Origin: Actinomycetota bacterium
GTDB lineage: Bacteria > Actinomycetota > Acidimicrobiia > IMCC26256 > PALSA-610
Length of the DNA: 64,000 nt
Assembly: GCA_052390615.1 (NCBI GenBank)
Contig: JBQTGT010000012.1
Span: 11,690-75,689 of the forward strand
Reading direction: 5' to 3'
Shown: positions 625-54,462 of the stretch, piece by piece
Numbering within the stretch: position 1 is the first letter of the stretch
Layout of the letters: each line of letters opens with the position of its first letter
The notes under the pieces: model-generated
Told to the model about the DNA's origin: nothing
Seen by the model: the letters and a program-made list of their open reading frames with translations, nothing else
Databases searched by the model: none
Translations under genes and position numbers: made by a program

Positions 625-1848
625 ATGGAACTGCCCAAGATCATCAGCGTCGACGACCACGTCGTCGAACCGCCGCATGTGTGGCAGACGTGGCTGGCGC
701 GCCAATACCGAGAGCGCGGCCCGCGCATCGAACGCAAGCGGTGGGGCGCGTTCCGCCACAGGGCCGGCGCCCGCTACGTCAATACCGAAGACCCCAAAGG
801 CCTGTGGGGCGACGCGTGGTACTTCGAGGACCGGTTGGTCTACGTGCACAAGCGGTTCGTGGCGATCCCACTCGAAGCGACCCCCGACGGCGACGTCACG
901 CGGTTCGACCGCACGAAGATGGTGATGGAAGCCCTCACCTACGACGAGATGCGCCCGGGGTGTTACGAGCGCGACGCACGAATCGAGGACTTCGAGCTCA
1001 ACTGGGTCGACGGTTCGCTGCCGTTCCCGACGTTTCCGCGCTTTTGCGGCCAGACGTTCTACGAAGCCGATGACAAGGAGCTCGGCCTCGCATGTGTACG
1101 CGCGTACAACGACTGGATGGTGGAGGAATGGTGTGGGCCGTCGCGCGGCATGAACATTCCGCTCTGCATCATGCCGCTCTGGGATGTCAACCTCGCGGCG
1201 GCCGAGATCCAGCGCAACGCCGACCGTGGCGTCCGCGCGTTTTGTTTCAGCGAGCTCCCGCACCACTTGAAGCTGCCAACGATTCATAGCGGCGAATGGG
1301 ATCCCGTCTTCCAGGTGTGCAACGACGCGGGCGTCACGTTGTGCATGCACATCGGGTCGTCGTCGACCAACCCGGCTGCGTCACCGGACGCACCGGGCGG
1401 AGTGGGTGGCACTCTCGCGTTCAACAACTCGATGGCATCGCTCGCGGACTGGCTGTTCTCCGGCAAGCTCATCCAGTTCCCGAAGCTCAAGCTCGCCTAT
1501 TCCGAGGGTCAGATCGGCTGGATTCCGTACGCACTGGAACGGGCCGACACCGTCTGGGATCAGCACGACAGCTGGCAGCACTCGAAGGCGCGCGTTCCCG
1601 AACCGCCCTCGACCTATTACTACGGACGCATCTTCGGTTGCTTCACGGCCGACCATCACGGCTTGCACTCGTTGCCCGAGGTCGGTGAGGACAACATCTG
1701 CTTCGAGACCGACTACCCGCACACCGACACGACATGGCCGAACTCTAAGGAGTACGTCGAGAAGATGCTGGCGGGGTTCGACGCGCGCATCGCCTACAAG
1801 GTGCTGCGCGGCAACGCGATCAAGATGCTGGAGCTCGATCGCGTCTAG
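625..1848 (+). CDS. Amidohydrolase-2 family metal-dependent hydrolase (ACMSD-like)
   Basis: 407-aa ORF. N-terminal IISVDDHVVEP (metal-binding DxH-type motif), later HIGSS and a C-terminal FETDYPH motif typical of amidohydrolase_2. High GC3. Confidence 0.9.
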   Translation: MELPKIISVDDHVVEPPHVWQTWLARQYRERGPRIERKRWGAFRHRAGARYVNTEDPKGLWGDAWYFEDRLVYVHKRFVAIPLEATPDGDVTRFDRTKMVMEALTYDEMRPGCYERDARIEDFELNWVDGSLPFPTFPRFCGQTFYEADDKELGLACVRAYNDWMVEEWCGPSRGMNIPLCIMPLWDVNLAAAEIQRNADRGVRAFCFSELPHHLKLPTIHSGEWDPVFQVCNDAGVTLCMHIGSSSTNPAASPDAPGGVGGTLAFNNSMASLADWLFSGKLIQFPKLKLAYSEGQIGWIPYALERADTVWDQHDSWQHSKARVPEPPSTYYYGRIFGCFTADHHGLHSLPEVGEDNICFETDYPHTDTTWPNSKEYVEKMLAGFDARIAYKVLRGNAIKMLELDRV

Positions 1849-1867
1849 GACGCTGCTGGGGTCCGCG

Positions 1868-1912
1868 TGTTTGTACCTGGCCGGCCGCTGTGCGGCCATC
1901 CAGGTACAAACA
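1868..1912. terminator. Bidirectional intrinsic-terminator-like hairpin between convergent genes
   Basis: TGTTTGTACCTGG (1868-1880) pairs perfectly with CCAGGTACAAACA (1900-1912). An inner GGCCGC/GCGGCC stem is present. The stem base is A/T-rich on both sides. Confidence 0.65.
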
Positions 1913-1931
1913 TCTCGGTGCCGGGTTCGCG

Positions 1932-2468
1932 CTATGGGACGGTCGTGGCGGCGGTCGTACTTAGTTTCACGAGCGCGTTCCACGACGACTCGGCCAACTT
2001 CCATTGGCCGTCTTCTTTGACCATCAGCCCGCTCGCCGCGGTGAGGACAACGGTGCCGCCGAAGCTCAGGTCGTAGATCACCTCGGCTTCGGCGTCGGGG
2101 AGCAGCGTGGCCTCGGTGGCTGCGGCGCCGAGCGCGTTCGCGCCCACGTTGAAGCTGTCGTACAGCGTTTGGAAACTCTCGCGGAACGTCTCGCCGTTCT
2201 CGAGCAGCGCCGCGGCGCCGTCGAAGTCCTGCTGGCTGTACAGCGTGAAGAACTGTTCGAGCGCGGCCATCGCCGCCGCTTGTTCCGCCGCGTCGTCGCC
2301 CGTCGCAGCGGTCGTGTCGACCTCGGGTGCGTCGGTCTGCTCGGTGGTCTCGTCGGGGGCGTCGGGCGCATCCGTCGTGTCGGTCCCGCCGGCGTCGTCG
2401 TCGCCGCCACACGCGCTCATTAGCGTCAGCGCCAGCACCGTCGCGAGCGCGATCTTCGTTCGCCGCAT
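1932..2468 (-). CDS. Lipoprotein of unknown function
   Basis: 178-aa ORF starting MRRTKIALATVLALTLMSAC (signal peptide plus lipobox). GGAGG lies 5-6 nt upstream of the ATG. An acidic/Thr-rich linker is followed by a globular part. Confidence 0.75.
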   Translation of the reverse strand: MRRTKIALATVLALTLMSACGGDDDAGGTDTTDAPDAPDETTEQTDAPEVDTTAATGDDAAEQAAAMAALEQFFTLYSQQDFDGAAALLENGETFRESFQTLYDSFNVGANALGAAATEATLLPDAEAEVIYDLSFGGTVVLTAASGLMVKEDGQWKLAESSWNALVKLSTTAATTVP

Positions 2469-2589
2469 CGAGACCTCCGTTCACCGACCAGGGGCGACCC
2501 CCGATGCGGAGCCGCACGTGCCAGGCTGATCCTATGTTGGTACGTTGACGCGCGTGTCAGGTGCGCCGGGACGAGGGATATCAAGGGGA

Positions 2590-2646
2590 ATGCCACAAGC
2601 GATGCCACGAGGGATGCCACGAGGGATGCCACGAGGGATGCCATGA
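2590..2646 (+). other. Candidate leader mini-ORF MPQAMPRGMPRGMPRGMP* encoded by the tandem repeat
   Basis: The ATGs at 2590/2602/2614/2626/2638 are all in one frame. The stop TGA 2644-2646 overlaps ATG 2643 of the substrate-binding protein gene (ATGA). Confidence 0.3.
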
Positions 2647-2649
2647 GGG
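2590..2649 (+). repeat. 12-bp tandem repeat, 5 units (ATGCCACGAGGG consensus; first and last units variant)
   Basis: Units at 2590, 2602, 2614, 2626 and 2638. The three central units are identical. The last unit carries a C-to-T change that creates ATG 2643. Confidence 0.9.
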
Positions 2650-3995
2650 CATCGATGGGGCGCGGCCGGTTCGCGATCACTTGTGTGTGCGTGCTCGCAT
2701 TGACGGCGTGCGCCAACGCTGGCGACGACGACGATGACGGCGTGGGCGAGAGTGGCGGCAACGGCGTCGGCAGTGACGGCACGACGACGGGCGTCACTGA
2801 CACCGAGATCCTGGTCGGCGGGCTCGTCTCGCTGACCGGGCCGCTCGCCCAGCAGTTCAAGGGCAGCGACGATGGCGCCGAGGCGTACTTCGCGCTCGTA
2901 AACGAGCGGGGCGGGGTCCACGGCCGGACGATCCGGCGAGTCGACACCCGCAACGACAACACCGACCCGGCCCGCAACGAGACCGAGGCCCGTGCCCTCG
3001 TCGAGGAAGACAAGGTGTTTGCGGTCGTCCCGCTGGCGACGCCTGTGTTCGAGTCGGCCGAATACCTCGGCGAGACCGGTATTCCTGTGTTCGGTTGGCG
3101 CATCCAGGACGAGTGGAACGATCACATGGCGTTCTTCGCACACTCGGGTACGTGGGCCCAAGTCGATGCCCCCGGCACGGCCGGTGGCGCGTACGGACCG
3201 AAGCGGCTCGGGTTCACGAAGGTCGGCGCGATCGGTTACACGATTCCGCAGTCGGCCGATTGTGTCGATCTCCAGGTACGCAATTTCGAAGCGGCCGGCC
3301 TCGACGTCGTGTACGAGAACAAGAGTCTACCGTTGGGAACGGCCGACTTCACGGCCGACGCGCAGCGCATGAAGGACGCCGGGATCGAGTACCTCGCGAC
3401 GTGTATCGACACGAACGGGAATCTCAACCTGACGCGCGCGCTGCAACGGGTCGACCACGAGGTTGCGATGTCATGGCCGACCGGGTACGAGCAAGAGGTG
3501 CTCGCCGAGTACGGCGACCTGATGGAGAACGTCTACTTCATTCTCCAGCACCTGCCGTTCGAGAGCGCCGAGGACTCGCCCGGCATGCAGGAGTACTTGA
3601 CCGAATTCCCGCGGCTTTCGCCCGACGGCACGATCGGTAACCAGAGCTTGATCGGTTGGGTCAACGCCAAGCTGTTCGTCGATGGGCTCGACGCGGTTGG
3701 GCCCGACCTGACGCGCGAGAATCTGGTTGAGACGATCAATACCGAGTTCACCGATTGGGACGCCGACGGCATCATGTGGCCGCTCGACTGGTCGGTGCAG
3801 CACACCGCCCAGAACCCGAACGGCTGCACCACCGCGGTGGTGTCGGTCGACAACGGCGAGTTCGTGCACGTATTCGGCAAGCCGTTCAACTGCGTGCTCA
3901 GGCTCGAGACCCCAGAACAGCTCGACTCGTACATCGCCGCCGAAGACGCCGGTCTCTCACCTGAGGAGGCGCGCGACGCCGCGCTGGGTTCGTGA
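2643..3995 (+). CDS. ABC transporter substrate-binding lipoprotein (LivJ / Peripla_BP_6-like, branched-chain amino acid type)
   Basis: 450-aa ORF. Signal peptide plus lipobox (VLALTAC), then the typical ...DTEILVGGLVSLTGPLAQ... start of the type-I periplasmic binding fold. An alternative start is ATG 2655, which also has GAGGG 5 nt upstream. Confidence 0.9.
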   Translation: MRASMGRGRFAITCVCVLALTACANAGDDDDDGVGESGGNGVGSDGTTTGVTDTEILVGGLVSLTGPLAQQFKGSDDGAEAYFALVNERGGVHGRTIRRVDTRNDNTDPARNETEARALVEEDKVFAVVPLATPVFESAEYLGETGIPVFGWRIQDEWNDHMAFFAHSGTWAQVDAPGTAGGAYGPKRLGFTKVGAIGYTIPQSADCVDLQVRNFEAAGLDVVYENKSLPLGTADFTADAQRMKDAGIEYLATCIDTNGNLNLTRALQRVDHEVAMSWPTGYEQEVLAEYGDLMENVYFILQHLPFESAEDSPGMQEYLTEFPRLSPDGTIGNQSLIGWVNAKLFVDGLDAVGPDLTRENLVETINTEFTDWDADGIMWPLDWSVQHTAQNPNGCTTAVVSVDNGEFVHVFGKPFNCVLRLETPEQLDSYIAAEDAGLSPEEARDAALGS

Positions 3996-5905
3996 GCGAC
4001 TACTGGCCGTACATCGTCGGCGGGGTCACCGAGGGCAGCATCTTTGCTCTCGTCGCCGCAGGACTGGTGCTGACCTTCCGGACCACCGGGACGTTCAACC
4101 TCGCATTCGGCGCCCAGGCGTACGTGAGCGCGGTGGTGTTCTACGACTTGCGCAAGGAAGCCGAGCTTCCTGTCTGGGTCGCGTTCGTGGTTGCCGTACT
4201 CGTCGTCGCGCCGCTGCTCGCGCTCGTGCTCGATCGGCTCGTGTTCCGGTTCCTGACCCGCGCGCCGGTGGTGACCAGGATTGGAGTCGCGCTCGGGCTC
4301 GCGGTTGCGCTGCCCGCGGTCGTGGCGCTGTACACCGCGGGCGAGCAGAAATTCGGTCCTCCCAGCTTGGGGCCGAGCCCGCCGCACTTCTATAGCGTCG
4401 GTTCACTGTCGATTGACTCCGACCAGGTCATCGCGATGGTGGCGACGGTCGTCGTTGTCGTGCTGATCGGATTGGTGCTGCGGTACACCGCGCTTGGGCT
4501 CCAGATGCGCGCCGTGGTCGAGAGCCACCGGCTCGTGGAGTTGGCGGGTGTCGACGCCAACCGCGCCAACCTCGCCGCGTGGGTACTTTCGTCGGTGGTC
4601 GCGGGCTTGGCCGGAGTGCTGCTCGCTCCGTTGAATCTCGGGTCGCTCGATGCGCGCAGGTACACGATCCTTGTCGTGGGCGCGATCGCGGCCGCAGTGT
4701 TCGCGCGGCTGCGCAGCCTCCCGCTCGCGATCGTCGGCGGGCTGCTGCTGGGCCTGTGTCAGTCGATGATCGTGAAGTTCCTCGAGCCGGAGTCGATCTT
4801 GGCCCAAGGGTTGCGGCCCGCGTTCCCCTTCGCCGCGATCGTGCTGCTGCTCTTGTTTCTGCCCGGTCTGCGCGACCGCCCCGAAGCGGTCGATCCGCTG
4901 GCCGGCGTCGATCCGCCCGCGCGCGTGACGGCGATCAGCGTGGGTGGGAACACGGGGCGCGCGCAGGTCGCGATCGCATTCGCATGTGGGATCGTCGCAT
5001 CGGCGGCGGCGATCATGCTGCTCTCCGACTTCTGGCTCGGCAAAACCGCGCAAGCGGTGATCCTGGCGACCATCTTCTTGTCATTCGTCGTGCTCACGGG
5101 TCTCGCCGGGCACCTGTCGCTCTGCCAGGCGGCGTTCGCGGGCATCGGCGCGTTCACGGCCGCGCAACTCGCGGCCGAGCAGGGCATGTCGGTCATCGGG
5201 GGGGCTGTCGTTGGGGCCATGGTTGCCGCCGCGGCCGGTGCGGTGGTGGCGCTTCCCTCGCTGCGGCTCTCTGGTCTGTTCCTCGCGCTCGCGACGCTCG
5301 CCTTCGGGCTCATGCTCGACAATGTGATCTTCCCGCAGCCATGGGCGTCGGGCAGCGGGACGCGCGGGCTCGACGTGCCGCGCCCACTCATCGGCACCAT
5401 CGACTTCACCTCCAACGCGTCGTTCCTCGTGCTGTCGGGAGTGGCGTTCGCGCTCGTCGCGATGTTGGTGTGGCTGCTGCGGCGGGGTACGACGGGCGCG
5501 TTTTTGGGTGCGTTGCGCGGCAGTCCGGTCGCGGCGGTATCTATTGGCATCGACGAACGGAGTGCTCGCGTGCTCGCGTTCACGATTGCGGCTGGAATCG
5601 CCGGCTTCGGCGGGGCGCTGCTCGCCGCGCAGCAGGGTTCGGCCGCGCCGGTGAATTTCATCACCGACCTGTCGCTGTACTGGACGGTCGTCGCGCTGGC
5701 CGTCGGTGTCGCGACGATCAGGAGTGCGTTCGCGGCCGGACTCCTGATCGTGTTTGTGCCGGAATTGCTCAATGAGCTGCCGGAACGCTGGATCGTGCTG
5801 CAGTTCGTGTTGTTCGGGTTGGGCGTGCTCGTGCTCGCGCGGCATCCCGAGGGTGCGTTCGAGTTCGTAGTGACCAAGTTCCATCGGCGCCGGCTGGCGG
5901 CGTGA
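3992..5905 (+). CDS. Fused LivH-LivM-type branched-chain amino acid ABC transporter permease
   Basis: 637-aa polytopic ORF. The N-terminal half begins like LivH (GVTEGSIFALVAAGLVLTFRTTGTFNLAFGAQ). The C-terminal half resembles LivM (GHLSLCQAAFAGIGAFTAA). The GTGA overlaps the upstream gene. Confidence 0.9.
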   Translation: MSDYWPYIVGGVTEGSIFALVAAGLVLTFRTTGTFNLAFGAQAYVSAVVFYDLRKEAELPVWVAFVVAVLVVAPLLALVLDRLVFRFLTRAPVVTRIGVALGLAVALPAVVALYTAGEQKFGPPSLGPSPPHFYSVGSLSIDSDQVIAMVATVVVVVLIGLVLRYTALGLQMRAVVESHRLVELAGVDANRANLAAWVLSSVVAGLAGVLLAPLNLGSLDARRYTILVVGAIAAAVFARLRSLPLAIVGGLLLGLCQSMIVKFLEPESILAQGLRPAFPFAAIVLLLLFLPGLRDRPEAVDPLAGVDPPARVTAISVGGNTGRAQVAIAFACGIVASAAAIMLLSDFWLGKTAQAVILATIFLSFVVLTGLAGHLSLCQAAFAGIGAFTAAQLAAEQGMSVIGGAVVGAMVAAAAGAVVALPSLRLSGLFLALATLAFGLMLDNVIFPQPWASGSGTRGLDVPRPLIGTIDFTSNASFLVLSGVAFALVAMLVWLLRRGTTGAFLGALRGSPVAAVSIGIDERSARVLAFTIAAGIAGFGGALLAAQQGSAAPVNFITDLSLYWTVVALAVGVATIRSAFAAGLLIVFVPELLNELPERWIVLQFVLFGLGVLVLARHPEGAFEFVVTKFHRRRLAA

Positions 5906-6276
5906 CGAGGCGCACGCTGGTCGGCGCCCTTCTCGTCGTCATGGCCGCCTCCGGGTGCGTCGACCACGATCTCAACGCGCGCCAGTTCTGCAATCGCCAC
6001 GCCGATCTCATCGTGGAGTCGAAGGACGAACGCGAGCTCGCCTCTGATCACGACACGCTCGGGGCGCGCGCCGACGAGATCGAAGAGACGATGAAGGATG
6101 CCGAGGACGGAACCCGTCCGGTGCGGCTTGCCGCGCGCGATCTTCTGGAGGGGTACATCGACCTCGAGCGCATGCTCGGCGCCGACGATGCGGAGCCGGA
6201 CGACGTCGCGGACACCGAGCACGAGCTGCGGGAGGCGCGCGCGGGGATTCGAGACGCGTGCGCGGAGGCCACCTAG
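5902..6276 (+). CDS. Small lipoprotein of unknown function
   Basis: 124-aa ORF starting MTRRTLVGALLVVMAASGC (lipobox). The GTGA overlaps the permease stop. Confidence 0.65.
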   Translation: MTRRTLVGALLVVMAASGCVDHDLNARQFCNRHADLIVESKDERELASDHDTLGARADEIEETMKDAEDGTRPVRLAARDLLEGYIDLERMLGADDAEPDDVADTEHELREARAGIRDACAEAT

Positions 6277-7712
6277 CCGTTCTCGAGCCGCTGCTGGCGC
6301 AACGCTTCGCCCTGCGCGTAGGCCATGTCGCGCGGGTACGTCCGCGCCGCGAGGAGCACGATGAGACCGGCGACCCCGAGCGTGGGCGCGATCTGCAGCA
6401 TCGCCGAACGCAAGCCGTACTGCTCGGACAAGTACCCGAACAAGATCGGGGCGGCGCCCACGGCGACGACGCGCATCACCGAACGGATGCCGGCGGCGCG
6501 ACCGCGCAGCTGCGGGACGATGATGTCGAGCTGGACCGCATTCAGGGGCGCCATCGGGAGTCCGATCAAGAATCCGGACACCAGGAAGAACGGCACGACG
6601 AGCGCCAGGCTGTCGAAGCCGAATGCGATCATCAACGACACGACCGCGCCGATGTACGCGGCGCCGGCCATGTTCATGCGCGCGGCCGGCGCGCCGCGCG
6701 CGAGTTGCCGGTCGCTGAGACGCGCGCCCGTGACGATGCCACCGACGACCGACAGCGCCAGCACGGCAACGATGGTGCCGGCGCCGCCCGCCGAGAAGCC
6801 GTGGTAGCGGCGGAAGAAGGCCGGCGCCCACGAACCGAGCGCGGAGAAGAAGAACTCGCCGGCGACGCCCGCAAGGAAGGTGATCCACATCGTCGGGACG
6901 CGCACGATCTCGCGGATCGCGGGCCACACCCGCAGGACCCGGTAGTCGACCGTCGGCGACTCGGACCCGAGCGCCTCGTCGTTCGGCGTCGGCGGCGCCG
7001 GGGCGGTGCTCGCGGCGAGGTGTTCCTCGGCTCGGTGCAACGCGTCGGGAAGCCCGCGCTGCGGTTCGGGCAACAGCTTCCACACGGCAGCGCCGCAGAG
7101 CAGCCCGGCCGCGCCCCACGCATAGAATGCCGCCCGCCAGTCGAACGCGTCCGCGAGGATCCCCGCGGCCGCGAACCCGAGCACGGCGCCGAGCAGCATG
7201 CCCAGGTTGTTGATCCCGAACGCGCGACTCCGTTCCTTGACCGGGTAGTAGTCGCCGAGCAGCGAGGGTGTGCTCGGTCCGTTCGTCGCTTCGATTGAAC
7301 CGAGAAATAGGCGCGCGGCGAACATCATGCCGAACGACTGGGCCGCGCCGGTCCAGAACATTGCGATCGACCACGGGAGGAAACCGAGCGCGATCAGCCG
7401 CACGCGGTTCCATCGATCGGCGATGAATCCGAACGGCAGCGCGCTCACCGCCGCGACGAGGGCGTACGCACCGAGCAGCAAACCGATTTCGTCGTCGCCA
7501 ACGTCAAAGGCGAGCCGCACGTCCTCGGAAACGGTTGCGAGGATCGTGCGGTCGGCGGCGTCGACCGCGCCGACCGCCATCAGGATGTACAGGTACCGCT
7601 TTGGGTAGCGGGGGAACCGCTCTCGCAGCCGGTCGACCTCCGCGACCAGTGCTTCGCGGTCGGCGGGCGCGACGCCTTCCGGCGCTGTGCCATCGCCGGG
7701 TCGGACCGCCAC
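6273..7712 (-). CDS. MFS transporter
   Basis: 479-aa ORF with about 12 hydrophobic segments and the MFS signature region GFIADRWNRVRLI between TM2 and TM3. Confidence 0.9.
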   Translation of the reverse strand: MAVRPGDGTAPEGVAPADREALVAEVDRLRERFPRYPKRYLYILMAVGAVDAADRTILATVSEDVRLAFDVGDDEIGLLLGAYALVAAVSALPFGFIADRWNRVRLIALGFLPWSIAMFWTGAAQSFGMMFAARLFLGSIEATNGPSTPSLLGDYYPVKERSRAFGINNLGMLLGAVLGFAAAGILADAFDWRAAFYAWGAAGLLCGAAVWKLLPEPQRGLPDALHRAEEHLAASTAPAPPTPNDEALGSESPTVDYRVLRVWPAIREIVRVPTMWITFLAGVAGEFFFSALGSWAPAFFRRYHGFSAGGAGTIVAVLALSVVGGIVTGARLSDRQLARGAPAARMNMAGAAYIGAVVSLMIAFGFDSLALVVPFFLVSGFLIGLPMAPLNAVQLDIIVPQLRGRAAGIRSVMRVVAVGAAPILFGYLSEQYGLRSAMLQIAPTLGVAGLIVLLAARTYPRDMAYAQGEALRQQRLENG

Positions 7713-7885
7713 GTCGTGAATCCTCGCAGGTCGCGGGCAGACTCGTCAGGAAGGCGAGCGAGTGCTCCGACCAGAAAGCTTCGCAGCGCGCTCCGAGACC
7801 TGTTTGGTCCGTCGCCGTTGCTATTGCACCGGCGGGTGACCAAATACGTGAGCGCGCGACGCACGAAACGCTGCCTGTCACGGCA

Positions 7886-8152
7886 CTAGGTCTCGTACTC
7901 GCGTACGCCGGGTCCGAGGCGATCGCGGAACCGCGCGAGCACCTCGCCCGGTTCCGCATGCCGACCCTCGGCGTGTTTCGAGAAGATCAACTCACCGTCG
8001 ACACGCACGTCGAACACACCCTTACTCCCCGTCACGACGCGCAGATCTTCGATCACGTGCTGGTACTTCGACAGCGAGTCCTTGGTCGCGCTCACGGCGG
8101 CGCGCTCCGAATAGTTTCAGGGGACGCAGTAGATGATCTCGATGCGGTGCAC
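7886..8152 (-). CDS. SelW/Rdx-family selenoprotein (Sec encoded by TGA, complement of 8117-8119)
   Basis: Extending the 69-aa track ORF upstream gives M-H-R-I-E-I-I-Y-C-V-P-U-N-Y-S-E-R-A-A-V-S... from GTG 8152. The hallmark N-terminal IEIxYCxxU is followed by TGSKGVFDVRVDGELIFSKHAEGR. The next upstream in-frame stop is TAG at 8162-8164. Confidence 0.8.
8087..8104 (-). promoter_or_regulatory. Candidate bacterial SECIS hairpin
   Basis: On the mRNA, CGCGC-CGCCGUGA-GCGCG starts 13 nt after the UGA and has GU in the apical loop. The stem is short (5 bp), so this is only a candidate. Confidence 0.4.
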
Positions 8153-8319
8153 GCATCGATTCTACGAGACGGCCCGGTCGATCCTTTCCAGGCGATTGCC
8201 ATGGCGGGCTGGCCCGCCTTGCCCGAATGCCGTTCACGCACTACGCAATGGGGTCATGCACGCGCCGGCCGTGGCGGGTGTCTGATGTGCCAATCGTGAA
8301 GAACGTGTAGGGGGACCGA

Positions 8320-8364
8320 ATGACGCTCACGTACGAGCTGTACGAGCTGTACGAGCTTCGATGA
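8320..8364 (+). other. Candidate leader mini-ORF MTLTYELYELYELR* encoded by the 9-bp repeat
   Basis: ATG 8320 is preceded by AGGGGGA with about 5 nt spacing. The stop TGA 8362-8364 overlaps ATG 8361 of the nitroreductase gene (ATGA). Confidence 0.35.
8332..8358 (+). repeat. 9-bp tandem repeat TACGAGCTG x3 (last unit TACGAGCTT)
   Basis: Read directly from the sequence. It lies immediately upstream of the nitroreductase start. Confidence 0.9.
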
Positions 8365-9029
8365 GCCCATCGCTCTTCGGTCTCGTGGAGACCGATCGCT
8401 TGCTCACGACGACACGCGCGGTCCGCAAGCGTCTCGACCTCACCCGTCCCGTCGAGCGCGATGTGATCCTCGAATGCGTGCGGTTGGCAACACAAGCACC
8501 GACCGGTGGCAACACACAGGGCTGGCGGTGGGTGATCGTCGATGACCCCGAGAAGCGCGCGGGCTTGGCCGAGTTGTACCGCCGCAGCGCGACGCCCTAT
8601 CTCGCCGCTCACCGAACGAGGCTTGGCGACGCGGCGACCGCACAAATGGGCGCGGTGCTCGACTCGTCCGACTATCTGGCCGAAGTTCTGCACGAGGTGC
8701 CCGTGCACGTCGTGCCGTGCTTGTTGGGAACGCTCCCCGAGACGGTGCACAACGTCGAAGCGTCCGGCTTCTACGGCTCGATCTTGCCCGCGGTGTGGAG
8801 CTTCATGCTTGCCCTGCGCAGCCGCGGCCTCGGCTCGGCGTACACGACATTGCACCTCGTGTTCGAGCAGGAGGCCCGCAGGTTGCTCGGCATACCCGAC
8901 ACCGTCACGCAGGTGGCGCTGATTCCGGTCGCGTACACGATCGGTTCCGACTTCAAGCCCGCGTCGCGGCGCCCGACCGAAGAGATCACCTACTGGAACG
9001 CGTGGAAGGCCACGAACCGACCGAGCTGA
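8361..9029 (+). CDS. Nitroreductase family protein
   Basis: 222-aa ORF. TRAVRKRLDLTRPVERDVILECVRLATQAPTGGNTQGWRWVIV matches the nitroreductase N-terminal FMN-binding signature. Confidence 0.9.
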   Translation: MSPSLFGLVETDRLLTTTRAVRKRLDLTRPVERDVILECVRLATQAPTGGNTQGWRWVIVDDPEKRAGLAELYRRSATPYLAAHRTRLGDAATAQMGAVLDSSDYLAEVLHEVPVHVVPCLLGTLPETVHNVEASGFYGSILPAVWSFMLALRSRGLGSAYTTLHLVFEQEARRLLGIPDTVTQVALIPVAYTIGSDFKPASRRPTEEITYWNAWKATNRPS

Positions 9030-16966: not shown

Positions 16967-18649
16967 CTAGTTGCGCGTCGGCATCTTTCCGGGCGTGTGA
17001 TTGATCGTGAAGTGCCAACCGATGTCGACGGTCGCGCCCTGCTCGGAGACTTGGTGGTGGAGTTCCTTCGTCGCGACCGGCGAACCGCCTTGCGGCTGTT
17101 CCCAGTTCTCGAGCAGCAACCCGGACTCTGTCGCCTCGGGCAGGCCGGCTTCGCGCAGCAGCTCGAGGTCGGTGACGAACGGCGGCATCCCGAACGCACC
17201 GATCGGGTCGGGGCACGACACGGTTGCCTCGGCCAGCGTCGCGGGCGAGACGTTCACCGTCGGTCCCGTGTCTGCGAGTAGTGTGGTCGCGACCGCGCCG
17301 ATCTGCCCCTGTCCGGGTGTGATCCCGCAGTTGAAGTAGTCGTTCTGCGTGTAGTCATTCGGCACGTTGATACCGACGAACGCGCCGACGCCTTGGCCGA
17401 GCAGTTCGAGAAGCTCGGCGCCGCGGTCGTAGCCGACGCCGTCGACCGGTCCCTCCTGCGATCCTTCGTACCCCGCGCCCGCCATCAACAATGGGACCTT
17501 GACGGTGATCGAGTCACCCATCTTGATGACACCGCCGCCCATGTCGAACGCGAACTCGCCGTACGTGTCCAGCTCGAACTGGTTGCACGCTTCGAGGACC
17601 TGCTGTTGATATTCCGCTTCGCCGGGCTCGTTGTCGTAACCGATCAGCTGACCGATCGTTTGCCAATATAAGAGGTCCTTGAGCTTCGTGAGGTCTTTCT
17701 CGTCGATGCACGCACGCGCGAGCTCGTCGACGCGGCCGCGGATGCGGTCGCGCATCTCGTCCAGCTTCTTCTCGGCCGCCTGCTCGCCCTCCTCGTCGCC
17801 GGTGAGCTGGGCGTTGGCCAGCTCTTCGAGCGCGTCGCGGAGGTCGTCGCCGAGGTCGCCCCCGCCGTCGTCGCCCGCCGGCGTGTCGCCGTCGGCCAGC
17901 GAGTCCCGGTCCGGTTCGCCGCCACGCTCGTCGTCACCGCCGGGTCCGGGTGGTTCGCCCGGCGGGTTGTTCGGCGGAAACCCGTTGCCCGGCGCCGGCA
18001 CGTCGACGGGACCTCCGAGGTCGATGGCACCGCCTTGCAGTCCGCCGCTCGTCGGATTCGACGGGCCGCGATCGGGCCAGCCGCCGAAGCCGCCGGGCCC
18101 GGGGAAGCCGACGCCGCCGCGGCCGGAGAAGTGCGCGACGGCCAGGATATAGCGGTCGCCGTCGTAGCCGATCGGTCGCAGCGACGCTTCCTCGCCGTCG
18201 ACCGCGAGGCCGGCGCGCACGTCGACCGCCGCGCCGTCAGGGAGGTCGACGTACAACCACGCGGGCTTCGCGAACACGAGGCCTTCTGGTTCGAGCCCCA
18301 CGCCGAACGCCAACTCGGTGTCGTCGGGAAGGCCGTCGAGGCGCAGCAGTGGCGCGACGGTGATCTCGGTCGGTTCGGCCAGCGCGCCGGGTGGGATGTG
18401 CAGCTCGTAGACGGTGCCGTCGGGGCCGGTGCGCTGCACGGTCGCGCCACCGGGTCCGAGGATCTCGGGTGCCGGCCGCGGCTCGGCCGCCACCATCGTG
18501 ACCGTGACGGGATTAACCGGCGCGGTGTCGGGCTCGGCGGCGGCAGCGTCGCCGCTGTCGGGTTGGGTGGTGTCGGTTGCCCGATCGCTGCCGCCGCATC
18601 CGGCCACCAACAGGGCGGCGAGCAGGGCGGGCCCCAGGTTCCGTCGCAT
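16967..18649 (-). CDS. Large lipoprotein of unknown function
   Basis: 560-aa ORF. MRRNLGPALLAALLVAGCGG lipobox, a central Gly/Pro/Asp low-complexity linker and a C-terminal ~260-aa domain. No recognisable family. Confidence 0.8.
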   Translation of the reverse strand: MRRNLGPALLAALLVAGCGGSDRATDTTQPDSGDAAAAEPDTAPVNPVTVTMVAAEPRPAPEILGPGGATVQRTGPDGTVYELHIPPGALAEPTEITVAPLLRLDGLPDDTELAFGVGLEPEGLVFAKPAWLYVDLPDGAAVDVRAGLAVDGEEASLRPIGYDGDRYILAVAHFSGRGGVGFPGPGGFGGWPDRGPSNPTSGGLQGGAIDLGGPVDVPAPGNGFPPNNPPGEPPGPGGDDERGGEPDRDSLADGDTPAGDDGGGDLGDDLRDALEELANAQLTGDEEGEQAAEKKLDEMRDRIRGRVDELARACIDEKDLTKLKDLLYWQTIGQLIGYDNEPGEAEYQQQVLEACNQFELDTYGEFAFDMGGGVIKMGDSITVKVPLLMAGAGYEGSQEGPVDGVGYDRGAELLELLGQGVGAFVGINVPNDYTQNDYFNCGITPGQGQIGAVATTLLADTGPTVNVSPATLAEATVSCPDPIGAFGMPPFVTDLELLREAGLPEATESGLLLENWEQPQGGSPVATKELHHQVSEQGATVDIGWHFTINHTPGKMPTRN

Positions 18650-22351: not shown

Positions 22352-22473
22352 TTGACTAGCTTCTTCCTTACCTTCGAGCGTCTCCGAACGTCCGCTCGTC
22401 CGGCTTCCAAGGGTAGCCGCGGCCAGAGTGGGGGCGGAATGGGACCGCCCGGACCCTCCAGTAGCCTGAACCG

Positions 22474-24271
<1,798 letters not shown>

Positions 24272-24294
<23 letters not shown>

Positions 24295-26293
24295 GCCAGA
24301 ACTCCGCCTGCGTGAGCGCGTCGCGGTAGTACGACTCGCTTGTGTAGTTCGAGTGTCCTTCGAGCGGCGTGAGCAGCGGCACCTCCCAGTCGAGGGCTGC
24401 GTGCTGCACCGCGCCGCCAATCGGATCGGTGACGCGGAACAGGTTCACCCATCTTCCGTCGAGGCGGCGCGCGAGCGCAGCTGTCGTCGCGGGTGCGAAG
24501 TACGCCGGAAAGTATCGGCGATAGAGGCGATCGATCGGTGCGCCGTACGTCACGAGGACGACGCGGTCGACGGCTTGGCCTTGTCGGAGCAGCGCCGCCG
24601 CCGCGATCACGGATCCTTGGCTGTGCGAAGAGACGATGACGGCATGGGCGCGGAATGTCGGGTCATCACGTCGCGGGTCACCACTCGTGAGATACGCAAT
24701 CCGCTGCCCGAGCTCGGGGACGGCCCGTTCGGCATAGCACGGCGGCGCGAGCGGATGGGCGTGGCGCGGCCAGAACGTCGCGACGTCCCAGACGATGCCG
24801 ACCCGCCGCCGCAGCGCGCGGTTGCGGTAGGACGCGCGCGCGAGCAGCACGAGCCCGATTGCGAACAGCGCGATCAGGCGGCTGCCGACGACCGTGAGCC
24901 CGCGCCACGCGGGCCCGGACGTATCGGAACGCAGGTCGTCGGCCCAGCCCTGGTCGATCGCGACCACGATTGCGACGCCACCCACGAGGAGCGGCACGAG
25001 CGCGGCCATGACGATAGCGGCGTAGACGGAGATGCGGTCGGTGCGGCGCGCGGCGCGGGTACGCCGCGCGACCGGGTCGGGCGGTTCCGGGTTCCACAGT
25101 CGTCGCGCGGCGAACACGAGCGCGGCCGCGGCCGCAGTCGCGATCGCGATGCCCAGCACGACCGCGGTTCCGCGTGCTGCCCACGCGATCCCCTCCGGCA
25201 GCACGAGCGCCCGCGTGTCGGGTTCGCCGAGGAGATCCGCCCCCTGCACGACGACGCCGGCGGAGAACGCGGCACCCAACGCGAGCGCGAGCAATGCCAC
25301 CGACGCGGCGGTCCACCGCGAAACGAGCAGGAGTACGCCGACACCGAGCACTTGGAAGGCGAACAGATATGTCACCGAACGGTCGATTCCCGGGAGCTGC
25401 GCGGGGAGGCTGCGGAAATCTGGTTCGGACCATGCGTACCACGCGGTCGCCAACAACGCGAACCACGCGAGCCCGAGCGCGATCCAACTCATCGTGACGC
25501 GGATGGGGTCGACGCGCGCGGGAATGTCTTCGAGCGAGAGCACGGCGACGCCGACAAGCACCGCGACTGACATCGCGAGCTGAAATTCCGCGTCGCCGGT
25601 CGTGCGAACCAGCGCGAACGACAGCAGCGCCGCCACCGTCGCGACCGCGATCGAGACGTGTAGGTGACGAAGCAGCCGTCCCCGTGCGCGGCCGTCCCAC
25701 AGCTCCGGATCGTCGAATGGCGTCTCTTTCACCAACGGCATCACGGTCACGTCCGGTACGAACGCCTCCGCGCGTTGCCACGTCGTACGGGCGAGCGCCC
25801 ACAGCACGGCGATGACGGCGACCGGAAGGAGCAGCGAGATGGCGAGGCGGCGCCCCGGCGAGTCGAGCCACTGCCACGCGAGGAAGCGCGTATACGCGTG
25901 GCGCTCGACGCACGCGGCGTCGCTGCCGCACTGCCACGCGAGGAGATCAGCGCTGACGATGTACGCGGAGCCGACGAGCGTCCCGGTCATCGACAGCGCG
26001 AACAGCCGCGTGAGTGGGCATGCGAAGCGAGCGCCGGGACGGTGCATTGCGGCCGCCGCGTTGACCAGCGCGAACGGCGTGAGCAGCACCCAGGCTGCGC
26101 GCATGGGCGAACCTGATGTGAGCCCACCCCACGCGTACGCCTCTTCGGTGTCGCGATCACCGTCGTCGGTGCGCGGTCGGTAGAAGCCCGATGCGTCGTC
26201 GCCCGCAACGCGACGTGGATGGGGGTCGTCGAGCATCTGCTCGGGCGCCGTCCCGCTCACCCCGTGCACACGCAGCTCGATCACTCGCTCCAC
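24272..26293 (-). CDS. Polytopic membrane protein with a C-terminal Ser-Asp-His hydrolase-like domain
   Basis: 673-aa ORF. GTG start with GAGGAAG upstream. N-terminal ELRVHGVSG, about 10-11 TM segments, then SSHSQGS (nucleophile elbow), RVTDPIG and EGHSNY. Confidence 0.8.
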
Positions 26294-26391
26294 TCTTCCT
26301 CATCAGAGTCGCAATTGCGCGCACCAGCGGCACTTTTCTGACTTTGATGTGGGAATCCGACTGGCCCGGGTAGCGTTCCCACCGACGTGAT

Positions 26392-31323: not shown

Positions 31324-33003
31324 GTGCGTACCGACGGCCATTGCGCCGGCCGGTGGGGAAGGATCACTTTGTTGGCACGGACGCTCGCGCTCGCTTCGGC
31401 GACCCTCGTGTTCGGCCTCGCCGCCGCCGCGCCCGTGGCGGCCGAGGAGGCCGTTGTCGGCGAAGTCCTCGCTGCGGACACCTTCAGTGGCGGTGACCCC
31501 GTCGTTTCCGACCCGGTGCCGACGGCGCCCGAACCTGCCGGCGGGACCGAGTTCGGCGGCGGTGAGCAGGTCGTTGGCGACCCGGCACCGACCGCGCCCG
31601 CCGCAGCCGCGGACTCGGTCGTGATCCAAATCATCGGCGGCGATCCGGTTGATCCGGCGACCGCACCGTGGACAGCGGCGATCCTTGCCGCCGAGACCGA
31701 GGACGCGTGGGCGGCCCAGTTCTGTGGCGGCACGGTCATCGACGACGAGTGGGTGCTCACGGCCGCGCACTGCGTCAGCGGGGAGTCACCGGCCACGATC
31801 GAAGTGGCCTGGGGAGAGGTGTCGCTCGACGCGATCGGGCCGGAGGATCGCCACGCGATCTCGCAGGTCGTGGTGCACCCGGCCTTCAACGCGTTCAAGG
31901 TGACGTCGGATGTCGCGCTGTTGCGGTTGGCAACTCCTGATCCCACCGCACCGATCCTGCCGATCAACACCGATTCGCTCGTTCCCGCTCCCGGCGAGTC
32001 GATGGACACATTCGGGTGGGGCGCCACCGGCTCCGGATACCCGGATCTCTTGCAGGGTGTCACCGTGGAGGAACTCGCGGGCGCGGCCACAGAGTGCGGC
32101 CTGTACGGCGCCGAGTACATCGCGCAGCATCACGTGTGCGCGGGCGCGCTCGAGGGTGGACGTGACGCCTGCCAGGGCGACAGTGGCGGCCCGCTCGTCG
32201 CCACGACGCCCGCGGGGCCGGTGCTCGCCGGCGTGACAAGTTGGGGCGAGGGCTGCGCCCAGGCCGACTATCCCGGCATCTGGTCGCGCGTGTCGTCGTA
32301 CACGGCGTTCTTCGCGGGGTACGTGAACGCGCCGCCGCTCGCAGTCTCGATCGGCGACGCGACCGTCGTGGAAGGCGACAAGGCGAAACGGTCCTTGCGC
32401 TTTCCCGTGACCCTGTCGCGGTCCGCCTTCGAGCAGGTCGCCGTTCGGTTCGCGACCGTGGAAGGCGGCGCGACGACGAGCAGGGACTACACCCGTCGGC
32501 GCAACGGTCAGGTCGTGTTCCGTCCAGGTGCGACGTACGCGTTTATCGATGTCGACGTACGCGCCGACCGTGTCGTGGAGGGCGACGAGCAGTTCACGGT
32601 CGTCCTGCGCGAACCCACCAACGCGACGCTCGACCGAGCCACCGGCACGGGCACGATCGTCGACGACGATCCCGGCGCGCTGCCGACCCGGGTGTCGATC
32701 GGCACGACGCTCGTCCCCGCATCAGACGGTGCCGCGACAGTCGTGGCTCCGTTCGCGATCAGCGCCTCGCAGAACTCGAAGCAGGCGCCCGACGTCGGAT
32801 ACGAGGTGCGCGCCGGCGACGGCAGCGTCGTGGTGGCCGGCGTCGCCCGTCTCGATCACCGGCGGGCGTCGACGATCGTCGAGGTCACGCTGCCCAATCC
32901 CGGGGGCGGTGCAACCACACGTTATGACGTCGTGCTGACGAGTGTGCCGGCGGGGTTCGCCGCCGCCCACACCGGGTTCGTCGACGTCGCCAGTTCGCCC
33001 TAG
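31324..33003 (+). CDS. Secreted trypsin-like (S1) serine protease with C-terminal Calx-beta domains
   Basis: IIGG...WVLTAAHC (His), DVALLRL (Asp) and DACQGDSGGPLV (Ser). These are followed by ...SIGDATVVEGDK...DYTRR...FTVVL...GTIVDDD Calx-beta-type repeats. N-terminal signal-like LLARTLALASATLVFGLAAAAPVAA. Confidence 0.9.
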   Translation: MRTDGHCAGRWGRITLLARTLALASATLVFGLAAAAPVAAEEAVVGEVLAADTFSGGDPVVSDPVPTAPEPAGGTEFGGGEQVVGDPAPTAPAAAADSVVIQIIGGDPVDPATAPWTAAILAAETEDAWAAQFCGGTVIDDEWVLTAAHCVSGESPATIEVAWGEVSLDAIGPEDRHAISQVVVHPAFNAFKVTSDVALLRLATPDPTAPILPINTDSLVPAPGESMDTFGWGATGSGYPDLLQGVTVEELAGAATECGLYGAEYIAQHHVCAGALEGGRDACQGDSGGPLVATTPAGPVLAGVTSWGEGCAQADYPGIWSRVSSYTAFFAGYVNAPPLAVSIGDATVVEGDKAKRSLRFPVTLSRSAFEQVAVRFATVEGGATTSRDYTRRRNGQVVFRPGATYAFIDVDVRADRVVEGDEQFTVVLREPTNATLDRATGTGTIVDDDPGALPTRVSIGTTLVPASDGAATVVAPFAISASQNSKQAPDVGYEVRAGDGSVVVAGVARLDHRRASTIVEVTLPNPGGGATTRYDVVLTSVPAGFAAAHTGFVDVASSP

Positions 33004-33029
33004 GAATCGACGCAGTAGCGTCGGCACCC

Positions 33030-34136
33030 ATGCGCGCCGCCCTGCTCGAATCGTCCGCGACACCGCTCACCGTCGTGGACGACATTGTTGTCGCCGATCC
33101 TCGTCCGGGTGAAGTGCTCGTGCGGGTGACGCACTGCGGCGTGTGCCACTCCGACCTTTCAGTGGTCAACGGCACCTTCCCGCTGACTGGGCCCACCGTG
33201 CTCGGTCACGAGGCCGCCGGCGTCGTCGAAGCCGTCGGCGACGGCGTCGCCGGTCTGGCGTCCGGCAACAAGGTCGTGCTCACACCCATCGCCGCCTGCG
33301 ACGAGTGCTACTGGTGCTTGCGCGGCGAATACGGCTGCTGTGTGCGCGGCTCGGAGCTGATGACGGGAACGTTCATCGACGGGCATACGCCGCTGTCGCG
33401 ATCGGATGCGCCGGTCCTGCGGGGCCTCGGCGTCGGCGGCTTTGCCGAGTATGCTGTCACGAGCGCGTCGGCGGCGGTGCGGGTGCCCGACGACACTCCG
33501 CTCGAGATCGCGTGCGTACTCGGATGCGCGGTGCAGACCGGCGTCGGCGCCGTGCTCAATACCGCTCGCGTCGAGAGCGGCGCGTCGGTCCTCGTGGCTG
33601 GGGCTGGCGGAATTGGAATCGCGATCGTCCAGGGCGCGCGCGTTGCCGGCGCGACGACGGTCATCGTGTCGGATCCCGTCGCCGAACGCCGCGAGAACGC
33701 CCGCCGCTTCGGCGCCACCCACGTCCTCGACCCGAATGAAACCGACGTTCCTGCCGCCGCCCACGACCTCACTGGTGGTGTCGGTGTCGACTACGCGTTC
33801 GAAGCGGTCGGGCTCGGTGCACTGGTGGAGGCCTGTCTTTGGGCGACGCGCAACGGTGGAACCACCATCATGGTCGGGGCCGGTGGTCTCGACCAGCAGG
33901 TGACGCTGGCCCCCGCCGTCGTGTTCATGGCGACGGAGCGCAAGGTCGTCGGCTCGTACCTGGGGTCTTGCAACGGGCGCCGCGACATTCCTCGACTCAT
34001 CTCGCTCTGGCGCGCGGGGCGGCTCGACCTCGAGGGCATGATCACCGCCCGCCGACCTCTGTCCGAGATCAACGACGCATTCGCGGACATGACCGCCACG
34101 CGCGGGATCCGGACCGTCCTCGAACCCGGGAAGTAG
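33030..34136 (+). CDS. Zinc-dependent alcohol dehydrogenase family protein
   Basis: GEVLVRVTHCGVCHSDL, GHEAAGVVEAVG and Rossmann motif VAGAGGIG. Confidence 0.9.
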   Translation: MRAALLESSATPLTVVDDIVVADPRPGEVLVRVTHCGVCHSDLSVVNGTFPLTGPTVLGHEAAGVVEAVGDGVAGLASGNKVVLTPIAACDECYWCLRGEYGCCVRGSELMTGTFIDGHTPLSRSDAPVLRGLGVGGFAEYAVTSASAAVRVPDDTPLEIACVLGCAVQTGVGAVLNTARVESGASVLVAGAGGIGIAIVQGARVAGATTVIVSDPVAERRENARRFGATHVLDPNETDVPAAAHDLTGGVGVDYAFEAVGLGALVEACLWATRNGGTTIMVGAGGLDQQVTLAPAVVFMATERKVVGSYLGSCNGRRDIPRLISLWRAGRLDLEGMITARRPLSEINDAFADMTATRGIRTVLEPGK

Positions 34137-34895: not shown

Positions 34896-35115
34896 GCCTC
34901 GCGTCCTACCCCGAATCGAAACCGCAGCATTATGCGTCCGCGCCGGCCGTTCAAACGGAATGCGCGGCCGCGTGGCGACCGGCTGCGCTCACAGCCACAC
35001 CGTGCGCAGCGGCCCGCGTGGAAGCGGCGAGCGTCGCGGGACACACCTACCCCGGCCGCCCGCGGGCGCGACCCGGAATTAAGGCAATCGGCGGCCGGCG
35101 CCGACAATCACAACG

Positions 35116-42223: not shown

Positions 42224-42255
42224 CGTTCACCGACGCCTTCGCGTAACCTCCAAGC

Positions 42256-43344
42256 ATGGCCCACCACGTACGCGGCGTTGTCGCCAAGGGACGCAAGGAA
42301 GCAGTCCGAATCGAGACGATCACAGTTCCGGATCCGGGACCCGGTGAAGCACTCGTGCGCGTGCAAGCGTGCGGCGTCTGTCACACAGACCTGCACTACC
42401 GCGAGGGAGGCATCAGCGACGACTTCCCGTTCCTGCTCGGGCACGAAGCTGCCGGGATCGTCGAAGCCGTCGGCGACGACGTCTCGAGCGTCGCGTCCGG
42501 CGACTTCGTGATCCTCAACTGGCGCGCGGTGTGCGGCGAGTGCCGGTCGTGTCGGCGCGGCCGCCCGTGGTACTGCTTCACGACGCGCAATGCGACCCAG
42601 AAAATGACGCTCGCAGACGGCACGGCCGTGTCGCCCGCGCTCGGCATCGGCGCGTTCGCGGAGAAGACGCTCGTCGCCGCGGGCCAGGCCACCAAGGTCA
42701 ATCCGGCGGCGCGTCCGGAGGCGGCAGGGCTGCTCGGCTGCGGGGTGATGGCGGGGTTTGGTGCGGCCGCGTACACAGGCAACGTGGGTCGCGGCGACAC
42801 CGTGGCCGTGTTCGGATGCGGCGGTGTCGGCGACGCGGCGATCGCGGCGTCGGCGATGGCTGGTGCCCGCACGATCATCGCCGTCGACCGCGATGCCCGC
42901 AAGCTCGAGTGGGCGAAGGAGTTCGGCGCGACGCATACCGTCGACGCGTCGAAGGAAGACGCGGTCGCGCGTATCCACGAGCTCACCGACGGCAACGGCG
43001 CCGACGTGTGCATCGAAGCGGTCGGCCGGCCGGAGGTCCTGAAGCAGGCGTTCTACGCACGCGACCTCGCGGGCACGGTCGTGCAGGTCGGTGTGCCGAC
43101 GCCCGATATGGCGCTGCCCGACATTCCGATGATCGACTTCTTCGGACGCGGCGGCCAGCTCAGGCCGTCCTGGTACGGCGACTGCCTGCCGTCGAGAGAT
43201 TTCCCGATGCTGATCGAGGCGTACCTGCAAGGACGCCTCGATCTCGATCGTTTCGTGTCCGAAACGATCGCGCTCGACGAGGTGGAGGACGCGTTTCACA
43301 AGATCGAGCGCGGCGAGGTTCTGCGCTCCGTCGTCGTGCTGTGA
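42256..43344 (+). CDS. S-(hydroxymethyl)mycothiol dehydrogenase-type class III Zn-ADH
   Basis: [31 protein letters not shown] and [15 protein letters not shown], plus Rossmann VFGCGGVG. Confidence 0.88.
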
Positions 43345-54419: not shown

Positions 54420-54426
54420 AGTGAAA

Positions 54427-54442
54427 CTGACATTAGCGTCAG
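54427..54442 (+). promoter_or_regulatory. Dyad CTGAC-ATTAGC-GTCAG (copy 3 of 3)
   Basis: It occupies the centre of the 43-bp gap between the divergent acyl-CoA dehydrogenase genes. It ends exactly 20 nt before ATG 54463 and starts 7 nt after the minus-strand ATG (54419). Confidence 0.5.
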
Positions 54443-54462
54443 GTCGAGATACCGTTTTCCCG

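Follow-up and report, generated by a model that had tools for sequence, protein, structure and literature searches.

In a 64-kb stretch of DNA from an uncultured Actinomycetota metagenome-assembled genome (MAG), here called the window, a short minus-strand gene at 7886–8152 very probably represents a genuine selenoprotein gene, in which a TGA at codon 12 would specify selenocysteine (Sec). The predicted product is a SelW-like protein of the Rdx family with a length of 88 amino acids (aa), and the 69-aa open reading frame (ORF) annotated at the locus is an artefact that consists of the truncated tail of this protein. The evidence comes from the reading frame and its family profile, from the pairing of the TGA with cysteine codons in relatives, and from the constraint on a hairpin that follows the TGA in the coding region.

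Reading frame, family membership and the Sec/Cys position

The frame on the minus strand reads GTG(8152) CAC CGC ATC GAG ATC ATC TAC TGC GTC CCC TGA(8119-8117) AAC TAT TCG GAG CGC GCC GCC GTG(8095) AGC GCG ACC AAG and continues to GAG ACC TAG(7888-7886). This gives a full-length coding sequence of 88 codons plus the TAG stop (7886–8152), with the TGA as codon 12 and the product MHRIEIIYCVP-U-NYSERAAVSATK..., and it is supported by the sequence, by hidden Markov models (HMMs) and by homologues in the PDB. The closest in-frame stop 5´ of GTG 8152 is TAG 8164-8162, and between this stop and the TGA the GTG at 8150–8152 is the sole ATG, GTG or TTG. The closest relative (L041, 85% identical) uses the same GTG as its start, in the context V-HRIEITYCVP. 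An earlier note on this DNA had claimed a frame from GTG 8152 with a single in-frame TGA, an 88-aa product with U at position 12 and no other available start, all of which the sequence bears out. It had also considered that homologues might begin at V8095 with no conservation upstream; what was found is that 18 of 18 close relatives keep I-x-I/L-T-Y-C-V-P in this region, with synonymous variation.

The mechanical ORF list contains only the 69-aa ORF (7886–8095) at the locus. Its start, GTG 8093–8095 (Val20), is used both in the ORF track and in public annotation, and is the conserved GUG of the putative loop of a selenocysteine insertion sequence (SECIS) described below. Gene callers end the upstream frame at the TGA and resume at the first possible start codon behind it, and because this codon is the conserved GUG of the hairpin loop, the truncation is clade-wide and occurs at exactly one residue. 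The identical protein in NCBI, P0001, is annotated as 'Rdx family protein [Actinomycetota bacterium]', is 69 aa long and lacks the active site. Among the best 120 of 627 protein-search matches, all 120 homologues are called at 63–74 aa with a query coverage of at most 80%, and several of those listed carry the JGI label 'selenoprotein W-related'. That annotation pipelines cut Sec genes short is well known (bioRxiv 10.64898/2026.04.03.716425). Here, the corrected gene model returns the active site to P0001, and the same truncation affects a whole environmental clade, as judged from the best 120 homologues.

By its sequence, the locus encodes a SelW-like (Rdx family) protein with a predicted thioredoxin fold. 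With U replaced by C for all HMM scoring, the 88-aa form reaches 58.2 bits against Pfam Rdx (PF10262; cut-off 22.6) and covers profile positions 1–74 of 74, whereas the 69-aa call reaches 36.6 bits and covers positions 24–74 only. The rise in score together with the extension over the profile implies that the 19 upstream codons belong to the protein. The NCBIfam model TIGR02174 (CXXU_selWTH; cut-off 34.2) likewise separates the long form (44.6 bits, profile 1–71 of 74) from the short form, which at 29.0 bits falls under the cut-off. The end-to-end alignment to PF10262 and the TIGR02174 score, which only the long form brings above the cut-off, agree with the Rdx (SelW/SelT/SelH) identity proposed earlier. 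Against the equivalog model NF041051 (SelTWH_Campy) the protein scores 66.1 bits, short of the 88-bit cut-off, and is accordingly a relative of that group and not a member. The PDB entries SAV_2001 (3DEX, E=2e-9) and Atu0228 (2FA8, E=1e-7), both bacterial Rdx proteins, align over residues 2–81. In these alignments the CTQC of both structures falls on the motif C9-V10-P11-U12 (TGC GTC CCC TGA, 8117–8128), which follows directly on IEIIY near the N-terminus. The motif is present as CxxC or CxxU in 67 of 68 related loci (the exception, L050, has TAA), as CVP-TGA in 18 clade members and as CVP-TGT in L005.

The TGA itself (8117–8119) is a probable Sec codon on the basis of what relatives carry at the aligned position. 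DNA of relatives was taken from genomes and metagenomes and translated through the motif, and 68 loci were placed in register. The aligned codon is TGA in 47 of them, TGC or TGT in 20 and TAA in one, in agreement with the expectation that the second redox residue would be Cys or Sec. The window's own clade accounts for 18 of the 47 TGA loci; its named members are mostly Acidimicrobiia MAGs and share the motif CVP-U-(N/D)Y..RAVSA. The remaining 29 come from MAGs labelled Chloroflexi, Planctomycetota, Thermoanaerobaculia, Holophagae, Delta- or Gammaproteobacteria and others. Among the 20 Cys-type loci are the widespread CTQC-RW type and L005, an orthologue from Candidatus Microthrix that is 68% identical and has CVP-C. 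Among the aligned loci the peptide is conserved on both sides of the TGA while its codons vary synonymously. In the 18 clade members, which span 54–91% aa identity, the codons 5´ of the TGA retain the residue and vary in this way (Val: GTC 10, GTG 4, GTT 2, GTA 1; Pro: CCC 14, CCT 4). Conserved residues with varying codons upstream of the TGA imply that purifying selection acts on a peptide continuing through it, which argues strongly against a pseudogene as well as against a genuine start at Val20.

One close marine relative, L050 (Ga0310342_100110759), has TAA at the Sec position, and the remainder of its ORF and its hairpin are intact. This could reflect a recent inactivation or an error of sequencing or assembly.

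Constraint on the hairpin and the case for selenocysteine

A putative bacterial SECIS hairpin (8087–8104, minus strand) is separated from the UGA by a spacer of 12 nucleotides (nt) and so begins with the 13th nt behind it, with a 5´ arm CGCGC (8104–8100), a loop CGCCGUGA (8099–8092) and a 3´ arm GCGCG (8091–8087). It is the minimum free energy (MFE) element just after the UGA and the sole RNAalifold consensus helix in the clade, where 98.9% of cells in the stem are paired across the 18 members. The earlier note had pointed to a GC hairpin 13 nt after the UGA with GU in its loop, and this turns out to be the conserved element of the clade. Codon choice is strikingly restricted within it: the five hairpin codons average 0.20 bits of codon entropy versus 1.57 for the other 24 conserved four- or six-fold degenerate columns (Mann-Whitney p=3e-4), and the minimum among those 24 is 0.96 bits, leaving no overlap between the two sets. 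The five codons are Arg CGC or CGT, Ala GCC (18/18), Val GTG (17/17), Ser AGC (14/14, although six-fold degenerate) and Ala GCG (17/18). At the level of sequence, the clade thus demonstrates a constraint on the RNA of the hairpin beyond the needs of the peptide.

The homologues from other phyla carry an equivalent hairpin 3 nt further downstream, GCCGCC-(A/G)GUyU-GGCGGC, at nt 19–35 after the U of the UGA, and here base pairs covary. Position 21 pairs with position 33, each being the third letter of an Ala codon, and the combination is CG in 13, GC in 7, GU in 4 and UA in 1 of the sequences, so that 25 of 25 are paired; changes from GC to AU are also seen at the pair 22–32. The covariation score is 0.286 versus 0.114 in shuffles, with 0 of 500 shuffles reaching 0.286, and it drops to 0.02–0.10 when the partner is slid by 1–3 columns.

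A published model of bacterial SECIS elements (bSECIS) calls for a loop of 3–9 nt, a stem of 4–16 bp, a G in the first two loop positions, a distance from UGA to loop of 16–37 nt and an MFE of at most −7.5 kcal/mol (PMC13188914, Fig. 2). Four of these five values agree with the window hairpin, which has an 8-nt loop with G at position 2, a 5-bp stem and 17 nt between UGA and loop; with a simple MFE fold, 20 of the 47 Sec-type relatives agree with all five. Compared with all relatives, the window alone has an extra GCC (Ala) codon, which enlarges the loop from CGUGA to CGCCGUGA. The window hairpin could alternatively form with a 3-nt bulge and so keep a 5-nt loop. Rfam has no match in the window at gathering thresholds, and a permissive scan of 7800–8400 returned chance-level hits only (E = 2.8–8.7).

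The Cys-type orthologue L005 (CAYFOV010000016.1, from a Candidatus Microthrix MAG, match 3001–3258) has TGT at the redox position, yet it has kept the hairpin CCGCGC-CGUGA-GCGCGG. This looks like a fossil SECIS left after a recent switch from Sec to Cys, and it resembles the remnant SECIS structures that have been described for recent conversions of this kind (PMC1794560, Fig. 4).

A number of results weigh against Sec decoding. No selA, selB, selD or tRNA-Sec is found in the 64-kb window, which contains no tRNA of any kind, and Pfam scans of its 40 large ORFs returned none of the three genes. Neither is tRNA-Sec found in 46 related loci, nor selA, selB or selD in the loci that were fetched. 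A scan of the window for in-frame TGAs flanked by coding sequence with high G+C at third codon positions (GC3) returned the SelW-like gene and six ordinary gene ends, with no second selenoprotein candidate. As to the hairpin, the stem is invariant in the 18 members of the window's own clade and shows no covariation there, such that the evidence at the clade level is one of synonymous suppression. The bare stem, at −7.1 kcal/mol, narrowly misses the −7.5 kcal/mol cut-off of the bSECIS model. Stretches of 50–111 nt around the hairpin are less stable than dinucleotide shuffles (z = +1.2 to +2.1), and Cys-type homologues are about equally stable over the same stretch. Since there is no excess of stability over shuffles and the Cys types fold alike, stability was dropped as evidence and evolutionary constraint was used instead. 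An EF-Tu-like GTPase at 22465–24291 was considered as a SelB and rejected, as it corresponds to TypA/BipA.

Indirect support for Sec decoding comes from two sides. Actinomarina, another lineage of the Acidimicrobiia, universally carries selA, selB, selC and selD (bioRxiv 10.64898/2026.04.03.716425), and TGA serves as an ordinary stop in the window. Among the high-GC3 ORFs of at least 150 codons, 24 end in TGA, 22 in TAG and 3 in TAA, which makes TGA the commonest stop, as the earlier note had stated. With TGA as the normal stop in 24 of 49 ORFs, any recoding must be local and not the result of a global reassignment of the codon.

The alternative that survives best, improbable as we consider it, is that the UGA is read through by near-cognate or suppressor decoding, which would insert one of the standard amino acids Cys, Trp and Gly, with the hairpin acting as a generic stimulator of read-through. 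The lack of Sec machinery in the window and the fetched loci would suit this, as would a hairpin that is small and slightly under the bSECIS energy threshold. However, the position pairs only with Cys in homologues and is the second redox position of a CxxC motif, which is the classical signature of Sec, and the spacing and G-containing loop of the hairpin fit a model of SelB-dependent elements (PMC13188914). Moreover, the gene belongs to an established selenoprotein family (PMC1088965; PMC1794560), and roughly every second other gene of the window ends in TGA.

Even less probable is a pseudogene, derived from a Cys-type Rdx gene by a nonsense mutation from TGC to TGA and without a functional product of either length. 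A single transition would suffice for this change, and the TAA of L050 could be an instance of such decay. Against this, 18 clade members, the most distant at 54% identity, have kept the TGA, as have 29 sequences of other phyla, its two flanks are under constraint at the protein level and free of frameshifts, and a dead gene would show neither the constraint on synonymous sites in the hairpin nor the covariation seen in other phyla. We give hardly any credence to the 69-aa protein from GTG 8095 as the real product, with the upstream codons as a regulatory upstream ORF or leader peptide: a GGAG 9 nt 5´ of this GTG is a possible Shine-Dalgarno sequence in the window and every public annotation among the best 120 of 627 homologues takes a start of this type, but the GGAG is unconserved (L001, L006, L007, L008, L009 and L010 have no such sequence there), the short form is without the first beta-strand and the entire CxxU/CxxC motif that defines the family (hence 29.0 bits against the 34.2 of TIGR02174), and the upstream codons match Rdx profile positions 1–23, unlike a leader peptide.

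With selenocysteine at codon 12, the source organism would be capable of Sec decoding; its nearest SelW-like genes are those of MAGs labelled Acidimicrobiia.

Transcript start and proposed decoding

No Shine-Dalgarno sequence precedes GTG 8152. Instead, a −10-like hexamer, TAGAAT (8159–8164, minus strand; pattern TANNNT), ends 6 nt before the start codon and may be the promoter of a leaderless mRNA; its TAG is the in-frame stop upstream of the gene. The pattern was first spotted by reading the sequence and counted afterwards, and 14 of 19 clade loci (the window, L001, L004, L005, L006, L009, L041–L044 and L048–L051) have it 6–7 nt 5´ of their start codon, versus 0.4% of start-like triplets in the window. 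This recurrence supports GTG 8152 as the start. Three loci (L007, L045 and L046) have a Shine-Dalgarno-like GGGAGG or GGTGG instead. A −10 hexamer at such a distance is the usual geometry of leaderless mRNAs in actinobacterial promoters. A scan of 7700–8450 for a strict sigma-70 consensus and for terminators found nothing. The arrangement suggests that the selenoprotein mRNA of the window is leaderless, with the UGA 33 nt from its 5´ end. In a text search of a library of papers, no bacterial selenoprotein mRNA described as leaderless came to light.

One can thus envisage the following course of events. The mRNA would start at or very near GTG 8152, directed by the TAGAAT box that ends 6 nt upstream. 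By the time the ribosome meets the UGA at codon 12, the hairpin that begins 12 nt downstream, with its 5-bp GC stem and a loop containing G and U, would have recruited SelB-GTP-Sec-tRNASec. Sec would then be inserted in place of termination and translation would run on to TAG 7888-7886. The resulting protein would probably be a small thiol/selenol oxidoreductase, in which U12, as a selenolate, attacks an oxidised substrate and the selenenylsulfide so formed is resolved by C9.

We tentatively raise the possibility, on balance a somewhat doubtful one, that the SelW-like genes of the Acidimicrobiia type are a sub-class of their own among bacterial Sec recoding units, combining a minimal SECIS with a leaderless mRNA. 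If the minimal SECIS is real, an all-GC stem of 5 bp with an invariant CGUGA-type loop would operate at or just under the bSECIS energy threshold, and SECIS-based predictors may miss genes of this kind. If the mRNA is indeed leaderless, its 5´ end would be only 33 nt away from the Sec-UGA and 48 nt away from the SECIS stem, and SelB-dependent recoding would take place within the first dozen codons on ribosomes that initiated as 70S particles.

Genomic context and comparison with known systems

The gene is flanked by a divergent nitroreductase gene (8361–9029, plus strand), a gene for a VTT-domain membrane protein and, downstream, an MFS transporter gene (7712–6273, minus strand). The earlier note had named the nitroreductase and the transporter correctly, and had taken from them a redox flavour that does not hold as a conserved association, because the neighbours are not conserved. 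The genes for the nitroreductase and the VTT protein are seen again only beside the same Rdx gene, on two identical Logan contigs (L002 and L003), and the MFS transporter gene has no match in any fetched locus. A sub-clade comprising L001, L074 and the P0019 contig has an order unlike that of the window, Lactamase_B - Rdx - F420H2-dependent quinone reductase (F420H2_quin_red) - P450 - acyl-CoA dehydrogenase, extended in L074 and on the P0019 contig by AMP-ligase - MerB. The quinone reductase gene overlaps the Rdx stop by 4 nt, and is called in L001 and on the P0019 contig and left uncalled in L074. The neighbourhood of L075 is different again. With a neighbourhood that varies among relatives, the flanking genes point to no partner gene and give no functional link. 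In L074 (ERZ25039489:contig_76646), genes for a molybdopterin oxidoreductase and a zinc-type alcohol dehydrogenase are fragmented (1844–3551 and 5034–6180) and are intact at the syntenic place on the P0019 contig; these splits are likely frameshift errors of long-read assembly.

Elsewhere in the window, three paralogues of zinc-type alcohol dehydrogenase lie within 12 kb (32928–34133, plus; 42247–43341, plus; 43377–44534, minus), and there are two AMP-binding ligases, two Amidohydro_2 genes, and TauD, PhyH and 2OG-Fe(II) dioxygenases, which together suggest a catabolic region rich in oxidoreductases. A divergent pair of acyl-CoA dehydrogenase genes occupies 53217–55557, where the stop-to-stop ORFs overlap in antisense and both ORF lengths are inflated. 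A 675-codon ORF at 35083–37107 (plus) is rich in Ala, Glu and Arg and has the appearance of a coiled coil, without a Pfam match or a tandem DNA repeat; an antisense frame (35050–36936) is also open because of the skewed composition (G+C at first codon positions of ~0.85). Two large high-GC3 ORFs of 560 and 675 codons (16970–18649 and 24275–26299, both minus) have no Pfam match at E <= 1e-5.

Bacterial SelW-like selenoproteins have been known as a family since 2004–2005 (PMC1088965; PMC1794560). They were the most abundant selenoprotein family of the Sargasso Sea survey, with 48 genes (PMC1088965), and SelW-like CxxU proteins are also found in Geobacter sulfurreducens, Desulfotalea psychrophila, Desulfotomaculum and Symbiobacterium thermophilum (PMC1088965; PMC1794560). 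The SECIS of this family, placed within the coding sequence and with G in a small apical loop, is of the standard bacterial type. The window protein shares the features of this family: a length of ~80–90 aa, CxxU within the first ~12 residues, an Rdx/thioredoxin-like character, a small G-containing hairpin in the coding region directly after the UGA, and the coexistence of Sec and Cys forms. It differs in that its mRNA is probably leaderless and in that its loop is enlarged to 8 nt by the extra Ala codon. The gene is thus an ordinary member of a long-known selenoprotein family, in which CxxU and a coding-region SECIS are well established, and no concept is changed by it. Mildly new are the probable lack of a leader in the transcript and a minimal SECIS that is specific to the clade and borders on the limits of the standard model. 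Surveys of selenoproteomes built on annotated proteins, or on the usual energy threshold for SECIS elements, may record too few members of this clade, which provides a compact natural case of a very short putative SECIS with clear constraint on synonymous sites.

Among Rdx proteins with solved structures, the Cys forms 3DEX, 2FA8, 2OJL, 2OKA, 2OBK and 2P0G are homologous to the window protein over residues 2–81 (E = 2e-9 to 9e-4), have CxxC at the same N-terminal position and share the core GG(V/I)F(D/E)V. They differ in having Cys at the second redox position (CTQC versus CVPU), are ~15–20 residues longer and need no recoding signal. The eukaryotic selenoproteins W, SelT, SelH and SelV belong to the same PF10262, with CxxU near the N-terminus and a presumed redox role like that of the window protein. 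Their SECIS is placed in the 3´ untranslated region and works with SBP2 and eEFSec, whereas the putative signal in the window closely follows the UGA and is part of the coding sequence, which is the bacterial arrangement. Within bacteria, the Acidimicrobiia type, with its 5-bp CGCGC/GCGCG stem and CGUGA loop 12 nt after the UGA, stands apart from the SelW-like variant of other phyla, which starts 15 nt after it. The minimal fdhF element of Escherichia coli is located 11 nt after the UGA and has the apical loop GGUC. Like the window hairpin, it belongs to the coding region, follows the UGA at a short distance and carries G and U in its apical loop, and the GGUCU loops of five relatives (L015, L018, L019, L057 and L066) resemble it in particular. 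By comparison, the window hairpin, with its putative binding of SelB, is much shorter at 5 bp and has no evident bulged U.

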